Assembly: GCA_044225365.1 (NCBI GenBank)
Contig: JBGAIQ010000004.1
Location: 96,001-160,000 of the forward strand
Source: Planctomycetota bacterium
GTDB taxonomy: Bacteria; Planctomycetota; B15-G4; JADJEK01
Length of the DNA: 64,000 nucleotides
Direction of reading: 5' to 3'
Positions 33,881-63,829 of this stretch are shown in pieces. The notes under the pieces were generated by a model. The model worked only from the letters and a program-made list of their open reading frames with translations, ran no database searches and was not told where the DNA came from. Positions within the stretch are counted from its first letter, which is position 1, and each line of letters starts with the position of its first letter. The translations under genes were made by a program, and so were the position numbers.

Positions 33881-33909
33881 GTTGTCGGTCGAGGCGGGAG
33901 TTCGTTGCA
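33881..33909 (-). promoter_or_regulatory. T3SS upstream motif copy (TGCAAC-N14-ACCGACAAC)
   Basis: About 65 nt upstream of the MIIA gene; one of four similar sites. Confidence 0.55.
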
Positions 33910-33932
33910 CCGCCGACCGCGAATCCCCGGAA

Positions 33933-35075
33933 TTACTCGTTCGCCGCCGGTTCCTCGCCCTTTTCCGCGAGATACGCCTGGACGCGCGTCTCCCAGGGAG
34001 CGAGTTCGCCACGGTCGTGGGCCTTCTCCGCGACCCACTTCAGGAGCTCGGCCACCGCTTCGTTCATTTCCTCGGGGATCTGACGATTCAGCTCTACTTT
34101 GAAGAGCGCCCGGGCGAGCGGTGGATCCTCGCGGATCGGGATCCCCTTCTGATCCGCGATCTCGCGGATGCGCAATGCGACGACGCCCTTGCCCTTCGCG
34201 ATGAGACGAGGCGCGCCCTCCTTCTTCGGATCGAATCGCAAGGCGCAGGCGTAGTGCGTCGGGTTCACGGTGACGACGTCGGCCCCGCCCGATGCGAGGT
34301 TGCGATACATGCCGCCCTGCATGCGTTCGATGCGGGCGCGCTTGATCTTCGCCTTCGTCTCCGGGTCGCCCTCCATCTGCTTGTATTCCTTCTTCAACTC
34401 CTCCTTCGACATCCGGTTCTCCTTGCCGAACTGGAAGCGTTGATAGAAGAAGTCGAAGGCTCCGACGCCGAAGAAGCACGCGAGCGCCCAGCTCACCATG
34501 TCCTTGAGCGCCATCGCTCCGCGATGACTCGCGTCGAGGAGCGGCAACCGCGACAAACGCACGAAGTCCGGCAGGTAGCCCTTCAGGATCTGCCAACTGA
34601 CGAGACCCACGATCATGAGCTTCGTGATGTTCTTCCCGAGCTCGATCCAGGTCCGCATCGAGAAGAACTGCTTCTTCAGACCGCCGATCGGATCGAGGTT
34701 CTCGAGCTTCGGTGTGAGCTTCTCGAACGAGAGGACCGGGCCGACCTGCAGCCACTGGATCAGTCCGCCGACCGCCGCCGTGATCACCATGAACGGAAGG
34801 AACGCGACGAAGAGATCCTTCACCGCGTCGGTGAACGCCTTCACGATGACTTCGTTGTCGAGCCGCCCGCGCACCGCGAGTCCGAAGACGTCCGTCGTCG
34901 TCGTCACCAGCCGCGTACCGAGATCGACCGCGATGAACGACAACGAGGTGTACCCCGCGAGCAGCACGAATGCCGTCGTGAAGTCCCGCGACTGCGGAAC
35001 GTTGCCCTTCTTCCGCAATTCCTCGAGTTTGTGCGGTGATGCTTCTTCGGTCTTGTCGCCGGCGTCGTCGGCCAT
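33933..35075 (-). CDS. sctU: Type III secretion switch protein SctU (YscU/FlhB family)
   Basis: KTEEASPHKLEELRKKGNV, MSKEELKKEYKQMEGDP, NPTH autocleavage motif, LARAL. Confidence 0.95.
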   Translation of the reverse strand: MADDAGDKTEEASPHKLEELRKKGNVPQSRDFTTAFVLLAGYTSLSFIAVDLGTRLVTTTTDVFGLAVRGRLDNEVIVKAFTDAVKDLFVAFLPFMVITAAVGGLIQWLQVGPVLSFEKLTPKLENLDPIGGLKKQFFSMRTWIELGKNITKLMIVGLVSWQILKGYLPDFVRLSRLPLLDASHRGAMALKDMVSWALACFFGVGAFDFFYQRFQFGKENRMSKEELKKEYKQMEGDPETKAKIKRARIERMQGGMYRNLASGGADVVTVNPTHYACALRFDPKKEGAPRLIAKGKGVVALRIREIADQKGIPIREDPPLARALFKVELNRQIPEEMNEAVAELLKWVAEKAHDRGELAPWETRVQAYLAEKGEEPAANE

Positions 35076-35110
35076 CGCTCTGCCTCTTTGTCCGTCAATC
35101 GTATCAGCGA

Positions 35111-35138
35111 GTTACCGGCGATGGCGATCGAGCGTTGC
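35111..35138 (-). promoter_or_regulatory. T3SS upstream motif copy (GCAAC-N14-GCCGGTAAC)
   Basis: About 35 nt upstream of sctU. Confidence 0.55.
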
Positions 35139-35186
35139 GGAGGGAATGGACCGAATCCGCGTTCGCCGACGATTCGGAAGGAGCGC

Positions 35187-61763: not shown

Positions 61764-61793
61764 GTTCTCGGCGGAAGAACGACAAGTGTTGCA
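61764..61793 (-). promoter_or_regulatory. T3SS upstream motif copy (TGCAAC-N15-GCCGAGAAC)
   Basis: About 80 nt upstream of the needle-like gene. Confidence 0.55.
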
Positions 61794-61856
61794 GTGGAAC
61801 TCGCGACCCTCAAACCTCGACGAGGCTGGCGAGACTCCCCACGAAGTCGCCGTAAG

Positions 61857-62147
61857 TCACTTTTGGTTATTCGGTAAAGCGATCTGTATCGCGACGGAAG
61901 CGGCGAGCTCCATCGCGCGAAGCACGCGCTCCGCTTCCTCGCGACGTTTGTGATTCGTCTCGCTTGCCCGAATCTCCTCGACGGCCCGGCGGACGTCCTC
62001 GACGAATCGCCGAAGCCGCGGCTCGGGCGCGCCGGACCGCAGCTCTCCCACGATCGAGAGCAGCGTCGGGTAGCGCTGTTTCAACAGCCCCTCGATCGCG
62101 TCGGTTCCCAAATCGGCCTCGCGATTTCGATCCATCGGCTCGTTCAT
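61857..62147 (-). CDS. Small helical protein in the YscE position
   Basis: 96 aa from MNEPMDR; ATGA overlap with the upstream lipoprotein gene. Confidence 0.6.
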   Translation of the reverse strand: MNEPMDRNREADLGTDAIEGLLKQRYPTLLSIVGELRSGAPEPRLRRFVEDVRRAVEEIRASETNHKRREEAERVLRAMELAASVAIQIALPNNQK

Positions 62148-63625
62148 CTCGTGCCTTCCTTCGGATTCGATATGACTTCGTCGCGGCGGACGCGCAAGCG
62201 ATGCAGGCGTTCGTCGGCGGCGCTCTCCGCCGCGGGCGGAAGCTCGACCGCGAGCTCCTCGAGCGCGAGCAGCCACTGTTCGCAAGCGACTCGATTGCGC
62301 TCGAACTCTCGTTTCGCCGCGGCGTCCTTTCCCGCGAACGGCGCATAGAAGCGCAATGTCGCGAGGTCGTAGCCGACGCGCACGGCGATGAGATCGAACA
62401 ACAGCCCGGGATCCTGCGCGATGCGCTTTCCCGGCGTGCCGATGAACTCCGCCGTCAAATTCTCGACCGATTCATAGAGGGAGCGTTTCGTGGCGATCTC
62501 GGTCGCGACGTCGTTCAGTTCGACGAAGCGCGAGACGCGGAACTCGGCGTAACCGCAGATCGCCGAGAAACACGCAAAACGCACGCGGGGGTCGTTTCGG
62601 ACCATCGGACCGTTGTTCTCGATCATCGAGCGAGCGATGTCGTAGGCCGCGAGGAAGGAGTCGTCGGTGCGCGTCGGCAGCTCCGTCGCGAGGCGGAGCT
62701 GGACCTTCAAGAGTTCGAGCTTCGCTTCGAAGCAGTTGGGATCGAGCTTGCCGAGGAGATCGTCGAGGTTCTTCTTGTATTGCGCGAGGAGCACGGGCGT
62801 CACCGGCTGCTTCTCGAAATCGAACCGCGCGAGATCGAACGCGAGCGTGCCGAGTCGGTGGCGCGCCTTCAGTTTGCCGATCACGTCGACGCCCTGCGCA
62901 GCGATCGATGCGTCGTTCGAGTGCCCTCCGCCGCCTGCGGCGGTGACCGCGTCGATCGGTACCGCGGCCTTGTTCCCGAGGTCGAACGCGAGATAACGGT
63001 CGATCACGCGCAGGCGCTCCAGCATCTCGAGCGGCGGCGTCAGGAGGTTCGAGTAGAAATCGTCCTGGGGAGGCAGGGGATCGTCCATCCGGCCGCCGTG
63101 TTCGAGCCAGCAAATCGCACGCTGTGCGTCCTCGAGGTCCTTCTTGGCCTGAGCGAGCGCCTCGATGGTCATGTCCGACTGACGTCGCGTGAGGTGGAGT
63201 TCCGCGCGCAGCAGGAATGCGGGCGCAAAACCCTTGTCCTCGGCCGCAGCGGCGGTCGCGAGTCGCAGCGCTTCCTCGACACCGTCGGCCCCGTTCGCTT
63301 CGAGCACGAGCTTGCCGAGCACCGTCTTGGACAACCCGTTCCGCCCGCCGCCCTGCGCATCCGCCTGCCGCGCCTTCTCGATCGCGGCCTGCATGTGCGA
63401 GGTGAACTCAGGGCCGCGCTGGACGAGCGCGTGAGCACGCCCCCACTGCTCGAGGCAGTCCTGGATCAGCGTCTCGACTTCCTTGCTCGGACGATCGACG
63501 GGGGGCGGCGGCGGCACGACGGGCTGCGGACAGCCCACGGCGAGAAGCAGCACGAAACTGGGAACGATGAGATCGCACAGTCGGCGAGCCCAGCTTCGGT
63601 GAGTCGGGTCGTACCTCCGGCGCAT
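62144..63625 (-). CDS. Lipoprotein with helical/TPR-like repeats heading the T3SS operon
   Basis: Lipobox AVGC followed by a poly-Pro linker; GGAGAGG RBS. Confidence 0.7.
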   Translation of the reverse strand: MRRRYDPTHRSWARRLCDLIVPSFVLLLAVGCPQPVVPPPPPVDRPSKEVETLIQDCLEQWGRAHALVQRGPEFTSHMQAAIEKARQADAQGGGRNGLSKTVLGKLVLEANGADGVEEALRLATAAAAEDKGFAPAFLLRAELHLTRRQSDMTIEALAQAKKDLEDAQRAICWLEHGGRMDDPLPPQDDFYSNLLTPPLEMLERLRVIDRYLAFDLGNKAAVPIDAVTAAGGGGHSNDASIAAQGVDVIGKLKARHRLGTLAFDLARFDFEKQPVTPVLLAQYKKNLDDLLGKLDPNCFEAKLELLKVQLRLATELPTRTDDSFLAAYDIARSMIENNGPMVRNDPRVRFACFSAICGYAEFRVSRFVELNDVATEIATKRSLYESVENLTAEFIGTPGKRIAQDPGLLFDLIAVRVGYDLATLRFYAPFAGKDAAAKREFERNRVACEQWLLALEELAVELPPAAESAADERLHRLRVRRDEVISNPKEGTR

Positions 63626-63800
63626 CGTTCCTCTCCTGCCTCGAGCCTCGAATCCGAGCCATGCATTGCAAGATCGTCGATCGGCGACTCGCCCACTCCA
63701 ACGAGCTCGCCAAAGGGCGATGGGCGGAGTCTACCGGTCGACGAACTCGACCGAGCACGCGACCGAGCAAGAAGCGCCGACGACGCGTGTCTCGGCGAGA

Positions 63801-63829
63801 GGGATCGGCCCGATTCGGCGATCGTTGCA
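63801..63829 (-). promoter_or_regulatory. T3SS upstream motif copy (TGCAAC-N14-GCCGATCCC)
   Basis: In the intergenic region about 175 nt upstream of the first operon gene. Confidence 0.5.

Follow-up and report, generated by a model that had tools for sequence, protein, structure and literature searches.

A 64,000-nt stretch of contig C34 of a Planctomycetota genome of the JADJEK01 lineage (hereafter G000; 6.5 Mb, 65% G+C, 103 contigs) carries two minus-strand blocks of a non-flagellar type III secretion system (T3SS); Pfam hits and gene calls place these blocks at ~49.8-63.6 kb (block 1) and ~30.3-35.1 kb (block 2). We refer to this whole stretch, G000:C34:96001-160000, as the window. Four intergenic sites associated with the two blocks share a short element, and most likely they are promoters through which a dedicated alternative sigma factor controls a single non-flagellar T3SS regulon. 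As a promoter, the element would be directional and bipartite, YGCAAC(G) serving as the -35 part and (G)(C)CGA(T)nA(C) as the -10 part; the -10 block begins 19 nt after the G of GCAAC, and this spacing would give it the geometry of a sigma-28 promoter. The element stands at orthologous places in G000 and in three Planctomycetota genomes from other families (G381, G137, and G355) and, judged from sequence, exceeds chance only through this conservation. From these observations we infer promoter function, a sigma factor rather than another protein as the reader, and the identity of that sigma factor. Gene starts in all genomes are crude calls made in this analysis.

Sequence and gene calls confirm that all four sites lie on the minus strand, between genes, and in sense orientation, as the original prediction had stated. 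Site 1 (33881..33909) consists of TGCAAC (33909-33904), N14, and ACCGACAAC (33889-33881) and ends 65 nt before the ATG of a gene encoding a DUF1521 protein. Site 2 (35111..35139) consists of CGCAAC (35139-35134), N14, and GCCGGTAAC (35119-35111), 36 nt before the sctU ATG; its start is as first given, and its end is at 35139 rather than 35138, one base further. Site 3 (61764..61793) consists of TGCAAC (61793-61788), N15, and GCCGAGAAC (61772-61764), 80 nt before the ATG of a needle-like gene. Site 4 (63801..63829) consists of TGCAAC (63829-63824), N14, and GCCGATCCC (63809-63801), 248 nt before the called start of a gene for a 469-residue protein. We propose these sites as promoters of the DUF1521 gene, sctU, the needle-like gene with the genes that follow it, and the 469-residue gene, respectively. 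The core pattern GCAAC-N14/15-RCCG has 12 matches in the window, only these four being intergenic, and GCAAC-N14/15-RCCGR has nine, against 2.04 +/- 1.57 in shuffles. No motif was seen in the 136-nt gap upstream of sctV, where the best matrix score is 2.3 bits. A search for sigma-70-type promoters at the four sites gave 0 in both stretches examined, and terminator-like hairpins around the sites were not above shuffles. We also compared strains over 61250-64000 using contigs of four DNA runs. Among the 40 best-supported of 146 differences, none falls in 61685-61826, which holds site 3, and five differences plus indels fall in 61827-61944; the region of site 4 had almost no cover.

Within G000, the core motif is at background frequency, an outcome that the original prediction had itself named as counting against it. 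It has 597 matches in the whole genome, 60 of them intergenic, and the enrichment in upstream regions that had been anticipated is absent (24 matches in the upstream-region set versus 34.7 expected from the rest of the genome). The T3SS upstream set shares 14 motifs of the 5-mer/gap/4-mer kind, and 283 of 300 random sets of 15 upstream regions likewise share some such motif in at least four regions. Weighted by improbability, 99.5% of 200 random sets equal or beat the T3SS set. A star-alignment score over 19 positions gave 771-809 for the four sites and 847-952 for the best motifs of 40 random sets. Every within-genome control fails, as it would if the four sites were chance resemblances without function. 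We regard chance as very improbable, since three other genomes have the element at orthologous positions and show strong clustering of it in their T3SS loci. There is a methodological caution here, in that a motif can be indistinguishable from chance in one genome and orthologous clusters alone may reveal that it is real.

Orthologous clusters were sought in 401 genomes of the phylum. A search with SctV led to G381:C12, and searches with the DUF1521 protein led to G137:C6 and G355:C34. The DUF1521 gene occurs in four of the 401 sampled genomes, G000 included, and these four, a small set for comparison, belong to four different families. The G381 cluster encodes SctN, MIIA (DUF1521), and SctV proteins at 52%, 43%, and 40% identity, respectively; SctQ-R-S-T-U are present, and the DUF1521 homologue directly follows sctU. 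Four further genomes (G269, G181, G296, and G365) have SctV at 37-41% identity and no MIIA homologue within the stretches examined. sctU was abandoned as a query (60 relatives, GTDB genome contigs, and metagenome contigs), as its 28-38% matches were flagellar fliPQR-flhBA loci without the motif.

The orthologous clusters carry GCAAC(G)-N13/14-nnCGA(T), and the expected conservation upstream of orthologues is observed. A sense site precedes the DUF1521/MIIA gene in all four genomes, at ~65 (G000), 90 (G381), 45 (G137), and 56 (G355) nt from the start. In G381 (CGCAAC-N14-GGCGATAAC, overlapping the sctU end) and in G355 (CGCAAC-N14-TTCGAGAAG), this counterpart of site 1 is found in the interval from sctU to the MIIA homologue, and in G137 it stands directly before the MIIA homologue. 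A site also precedes the needle-like gene in three of the four genomes, namely G000, G381 (CGCAAC-N14-GCCGATGAC at 8605, ~75 nt before the ATG), and G137 (at 65425); the needle-like gene of G355 has no upstream site at 11 bits or more. G381 has a further site, CGCAAC-N14-GCCGATCAC, 21 nt before a 509-residue gene. In G137, sites were also found before a 493-residue TPR gene (the counterpart there of site 4), the FliO-like/sctR operon, sctV, an FHA-trypsin operon, and a gene for an extracytoplasmic function (ECF) sigma factor. The 493-residue TPR protein has a tblastn match to a G355 gene at 22% identity and none in G000. Nothing corresponding to site 2 is seen in G381, G137, or G355; in these genomes sctU comes immediately after sctT. 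Back-to-back copies of the motif on opposite strands precede sctV at G137:C6 ~51766-51771 and G355:C34 ~270124-270152, and this arrangement suggests a divergent promoter pair.

Next, we asked how these recurrences compare with expectation. The pattern GCAACG-N15-CGAT, which was fixed after the sites had been viewed, has 82 matches in the 7.1-Mb genome of G137, and nine of them are in the 31-kb cluster, versus 0.35 expected. In G381 there are 26 matches, with six in C12:2.5-29 kb, all on the T3SS strand, versus 0.14 expected. G000 itself has 102 matches, one of which is in the cluster. For a test fixed beforehand, we made a matrix from nothing but the four window sites and took 60 80-kb pieces as the null. 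Applied to 124 kb of G381, it ranked the needle, head, and MIIA sites 1-3 (19.4, 18.6, and 16.9 bits), and the third-best score was at most 15.3 bits in all 60 null pieces. In 160 kb of G137 the DUF1521 site came first and the needle site third, and in G355 the DUF1521 site came seventh. For the reverse test, we scored 3,618 upstream regions of G000 with a matrix from 13 G381 and G137 sites. Site 4 ranked 2, site 1 ranked 11, and site 2 ranked 15, and site 3 was weakest at rank 440 (6.2 bits); this test is partly circular because the foreign sites had been picked with a GCAAC...CG pattern.

We compiled 17 sites, the foreign ones collected with a pattern containing GCAAC and CG. They lie ~20-250 nt before start codons, and 16 of the 17 have N14 after GCAAC, that is, 19 nt from first base to first base; the remaining one has 20 nt. 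An element that is directional and asymmetric, with fixed spacing and near start codons, is built like a promoter. Conservation covers YGCAAC(G) and CGA(T), and the RCCG first proposed as the second box is not kept across genomes. The -10 parts read ACCGACAA, GCCGGTAA, GCCGAGAA, and GCCGATCC in the window, GCCGATCA, GCCGATGA, and GGCGATAA in G381, nnCGATnn in G137, and nnCGA(G/T/C)AAG in G355. The Escherichia coli sigma-28 consensus is TAAAGTTT-n11-GCCGATAA (PMC2859248), and the T3SS sites agree with it in the 19-nt register and in the -10 core. All of them keep CGA, and no site matches the full octamer GCCGATAA. The -35 part is GCAAC in 17/17 sites, which were selected with that pentamer, and is not the TAAA(G) of sigma-28.

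G000 has a sigma-28-type regulon of its own. TCAAG-N16-GCCGA occurs 12 times in upstream regions versus 0.18 expected, and TCAAG-N14-16-GCCGA occurs 25 times versus 5.9 expected. The consensus is cTCAAGt-N14-16-GCCGA(A/T), as in the flagellin upstream region at C95:324749-325038. Such sites precede flagellin (N14), fliA (as TCAAC), MCP, PilZ, PilM (type IV pilus), GGDEF, polysaccharide-export, and glycosyltransferase genes, and the regulon looks like a swarmer-cell programme. The T3SS sites have the CAA core, the register, and GCCGA in common with this motif and differ from it in the -35 flanks. Refinement of a sigma-28-type matrix by expectation maximisation was dropped, as it drifted to low-complexity TCGAG...CGA sites and swelled from 180 to 913 sites. 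Contigs C95, C89, and C75 encode three FliA/WhiG-like paralogues whose scores reach or approach the family cut-off, and two G000 paralogues pass the cut-off of TIGR02479, the NCBIfam FliA/WhiG family, with 254.4 and 192.7 bits.

We then considered which sigma factor could read the element. G000 has 109 Sigma70_r2 matches, and the Pfam scan found no sigma factor gene within the T3SS blocks of the window, where one had been looked for. A search for FliA/WhiG paralogues, as the original prediction had advised, did yield a candidate outside the window. This gene, G000:C34:78499-79179, lies ~45 kb from the cluster in an FHA-sigma-kinase row (C34:77.5-81.0 kb), with a Ser/Thr kinase gene next after it. 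Its type of sigma factor, ~225 residues long and encoded directly after an FHA-domain gene, occurs in G000, G355, and G137; in G355 it sits within the T3SS cluster, and in G137 it adjoins the margin of the cluster. In G137, the sigma gene is the last of a row (FHA-trypsin / FGE-sulfatase / FHA / sigma) that starts with a 22-bit site. The three FHA-linked proteins align over their full length (pairwise E values of 4e-34, 2e-17, and 1e-19), and the best NCBIfam family for the G000 and G355 proteins is FliA/WhiG (111.7 and 113.8 bits). FHA-domain matches were also seen on contig C11.

We put it at a little under an even chance that this divergent, FHA-linked member of the FliA/WhiG family reads the T3SS promoters. 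RNA polymerase carrying it would bind the four sites, FHA/kinase signalling would set its activity, and it would turn on both blocks jointly, through the 469-residue gene, the needle-like gene and its followers, sctU, and the DUF1521 gene. The original prediction had called for a dedicated FliA-like or ECF sigma factor coordinating both blocks. A shared, directional, bipartite element that spans both blocks and is conserved in three other genomes agrees with this.

Several observations weigh against a dedicated FHA-linked sigma factor acting on promoters of this kind. In addition to the background frequency and failed controls within G000, GCAAC is unlike TAAAG and is two positions off the TCAAG of G000, and single-base -35 variants of TCAAG, including GCAAG and TCAAC, show no upstream enrichment. 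The candidate scores below the TIGR02479 cut-off (111.7 versus 189.6 bits) and has matches at E <= 1e-12 in 315 of the 401 phylum genomes. Its similarity to the G355 protein (E 2.5e-26) also hardly exceeds its similarity to ordinary FliA-like genes (next best 1.4e-24), and therefore orthology rests on the FHA neighbour and the full-length alignment. The G381 genome, which is 81% complete, yielded no FHA-linked copy, and an autoregulatory site was sought before the FHA-sigma operon of G000 and G355 without finding the motif. ECF promoters generally have a -35 part with AAC and a -10 part with CG ~16-17 nt further on, and all 17 compiled sites fit this layout, reading GCAAC-N16/17-CG(A/G), a pattern with which they had been selected. 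Finally, ECF genes adjoining kinase genes lie inside the G381 and G137 clusters, and the one in G137 has its own site.

These last points favour promoters for an ECF sigma factor under Ser/Thr kinase control, where, as with HrpL, an ECF factor encoded with the T3SS would activate all operons and its own gene. The G381 gene (L090:3991-4758) is beside a 1,067-residue Pkinase gene, and the G137 gene (L104:5665-6525) is between two Pkinase genes; NCBIfam puts both proteins among ECF families. AGCAACG-N13-TGCGAT stands directly before the G137 gene, and G381 has a similar AGCAACG site (18.5 bits) 1.9 kb before its ECF gene. An ECF gene is therefore present in two of the four clusters and adjoins its own site in G137 only. 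Regulation of ECF sigma factors by Ser/Thr kinases is known (PMC7826278). The best G000 match of the G381 protein (C63:114164-114688, E 8.3e-13, ~29% identical) follows a surE-like gene that has TGCAACG-N13-GCCGTC upstream.

However, the T3SS blocks of the window contain no ECF gene, and a Pfam scan of part of the G355 cluster revealed none there. Between the two in-cluster ECF proteins there is little resemblance (32% identity over 72 residues, E 2e-05), and their G000 matches are only ~27-30% identical. ECF -10 boxes are often of a CGT type, and the GCCGAT/CGAnAA boxes here are nearer to sigma-28. The hrp box, GGAACC..., is in none of the compiled sites. We consider kinase-controlled ECF promoters possible but doubtful.

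A different protein could also bind the motif, either an activator or another of the ~100 sigma-70-family proteins suggested by the Sigma70_r2 matches, with the true promoter elsewhere or overlapping. The DNA between the T3SS blocks encodes a TetR-family protein and a pair of histidine kinase/response-regulator hybrids, and contig C28 has two strong look-alike sites, before C39-like peptidase and radical SAM/SPASM genes, near an ECF sigma/anti-sigma pair. This explanation is unlikely in our view. The sites are always in sense orientation and asymmetric, with N14 in 16/17 and starts ~20-250 nt away, which argues for a promoter rather than a dimeric operator, and the two hybrid kinases have no Pfam DNA-binding output domain.

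The original prediction had also offered the motif as a means of finding unlinked T3SS components and effectors, and our genome scan gave no convincing one. Elsewhere in G000, genes of the radical SAM, GH9, and kinase kinds have the loose motif upstream, and matrix hits precede genes for a C39-like peptidase, a radical SAM/SPASM protein, an S46 peptidase, an RlmL-like methyltransferase, and a ClpB-like ATPase, none of them recognisably related to a T3SS. The RlmL-like methyltransferase gene is followed by one for a sigma-FGE-sulfatase fusion. Among the G000 matrix hits, only the two C28 sites have the CGAnAAC form of the window; they read TGCAACGC-N15-TGCGACAAC before the peptidase gene and CGCAACGC-N14-GCCGAGAAC before the radical SAM gene. 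The locus (G000:C28:32204-39870, L087) encodes an ECF sigma factor, a zf-HC2 anti-sigma factor, an HtrA-like protease, TPR and AHSA1-like proteins, and then the C39-like peptidase, the radical SAM/SPASM protein, and a PQQ-like propeller. An ECF sigma gene and a kinase-FGE-sulfatase gene on contig C40, with a look-alike site, were set aside as they do not form one operon. FGE-sulfatase domains recur close to these systems. A fusion of one with a Ser/Thr kinase is encoded beside the cluster (C34:163938-166928, or 67938-70928 in window numbering, past the window end), one stands alone in the G137 cluster (G137:C6 ~84262-85971), and one is fused to an ECF sigma factor on contig C2, downstream of a gene with a high-scoring motif site.

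The T3SS genes themselves are as follows. Block 1 begins past site 4 with the "head" gene (62144..63553, minus strand), which encodes the helical, TPR-like protein of 469 residues and has no Pfam family. Contigs of related strains from other bioreactor or sludge runs track the window to ~63535-63638 and then diverge (~63535-63640), and the T3SS DNA that they share may have its left boundary just inside or before the start of this gene. The needle-like gene (61343..61684, minus strand) encodes a glycine-rich protein of 113 residues, also without a Pfam family. Its C-terminus matches G381, G137, and G355 by tblastn, and its label as an SctF candidate comes from size and this conserved C-terminus only. 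The remainder of block 1 (49802..61295, minus strand; Pfam hits and gene calls) encodes, in order, a 146-residue protein, a 180-residue protein, SctJ, a 297-residue protein, SctL, an 878-nt stretch, SctN, a 160-residue protein, a 302-residue protein, SctQ, a FliO-like protein, SctR, SctS, and SctT. The 146-residue protein has no Pfam family, and the matching G355 protein is a TPR protein. The 878-nt stretch between sctN and sctL (56147-57024) has no confident gene. Its only long open reading frame (ORF; 56150-57394) overlaps sctL in a different frame and translates to arginine-rich nonsense; a gene, such as an SctO- or SctK-like one, may have been missed here, or a gene may have decayed.

Block 2 consists of sctU (33933..35075, FlhB/YscU family, PF01312, E 1.4e-104), the gene for the 416-residue DUF1521 (MIIA/NopE-like) protein (32566..33816, PF07481, E 1.6e-07, domain N-terminal), and sctV (30309..32429, FHIPEP, PF00771, E 3.9e-179), all on the minus strand. 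The DUF1521 protein and the needle-like protein end alike, with ...KTEH(D/E)xRMxx(I/V)RN..., and because of this the MIIA protein resembles a fusion of an autocleavage-type domain with a module of the needle family. The needle C-terminal match in G137 is likewise at the end of its DUF1521 gene. Between the blocks are a hybrid histidine kinase of ~2,400 residues (42383-49774; 14-15 tandem HAMP domains, GAF, HisKA/HATPase, and three receiver domains) and a second receiver-kinase hybrid that follows it; GDSL, TetR, and AHSA1 genes also lie between the blocks.

All nine core proteins (SctV, U, T, S, R, Q, N, L, and J) have Pfam hits in the cluster, and no flagellum-specific rod, hook, or motor genes are present there, as in an injectisome-type system with the core export and sorting set. 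The flagellar cluster proper, with fliA and flagellin, is separate on contig C95. We found no Pfam secretin (SctC) among the window proteins, and none of the 13 Secretin-domain matches in the genome is on contig C34. The lack of a secretin on the T3SS contig and the FliO-like gene in the cluster both recall secretin-less early systems, which are discussed for Myxococcales in PMC3459982.

Non-flagellar T3SSs appear rare in free-living Planctomycetota, to judge from the occurrence of the DUF1521 gene, and, as far as our literature search shows, they are unstudied; among the papers that it listed, none takes up their regulation in its title or abstract. The conserved element would define transcription units and allow co-regulated secreted proteins to be predicted genome by genome. 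It points to two candidate regulators, the FHA-linked FliA-like sigma factor and the kinase-linked ECF sigma factor, and a sigma-28-like reading, if true, would bear on how injectisome control evolved from the flagellar hierarchy. We tentatively suggest, with considerable doubt, that a T3SS family with a FliO-like gene and no linked secretin kept flagellar late-gene control, with a duplicated FliA-type sigma factor that came under an FHA protein and a Ser/Thr kinase and now reads GCAAC-type, sigma-28-shaped promoters before needle-like, secreted-protein, and export genes. If true, regulation here would be an extant intermediate between the flagellar and injectisome types, with the kinase-linked ECF sigma factor as a second tier in some lineages.

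Proteins with a DUF1521/MIIA domain are encoded with T3SS clusters and secreted by the T3SS, as PMC6506597 describes. Like NopE1 and NopE2 of Bradyrhizobium and VIC_001052 of Vibrio coralliilyticus, the predicted product of the gene that follows site 1 contains a DUF1521 domain; it differs in that the domain is joined to a needle-like C-terminus.

Chlamydia belongs to the same Planctomycetes-Verrucomicrobia-Chlamydiae group as the planctomycetes and has no flagella. It keeps a sigma-28, and alternative sigma factors are reported to run its late genes, with T3SS effectors under sigma-54. The chlamydial T3SS is unlike this one, and any likeness in control would be a broad one.

The class 3 flagellar promoters of FliA (PMC2859248) share the 19-nt register and the GCCGA(T)-type -10 part with the T3SS sites. 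In addition, the machine under control is related to the flagellar export apparatus, and the best family of the candidate sigma factor is FliA/WhiG. In contrast to FliA promoters, the -35 part here is GCAAC, the targets are non-flagellar, and the candidate is a sub-cut-off family member linked to an FHA gene and a kinase.

HrpL and its hrp box, in Pseudomonas syringae, Erwinia, and Dickeya, resemble the proposed system in that one alternative sigma factor uses a bipartite promoter before each T3SS operon and before genes for secreted proteins. Both -35 parts contain AAC. An hrp box may sit inside the 3' end of an upstream ORF, according to PMC4544800, and the MIIA site of G381 similarly overlaps the end of sctU. 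The hrp box is of the GGAACC-N..-TCAT/CCAC type, whereas the element here is YGCAACG-N13-nnCGAT, and the phylum is another one. Unlike HrpL, the best candidate here is FliA-like rather than ECF, with its gene outside the T3SS blocks of the window and FHA and Ser/Thr kinase genes as neighbours. By analogy, the T3SS described here would work like the HrpL/hrp-box regulon.

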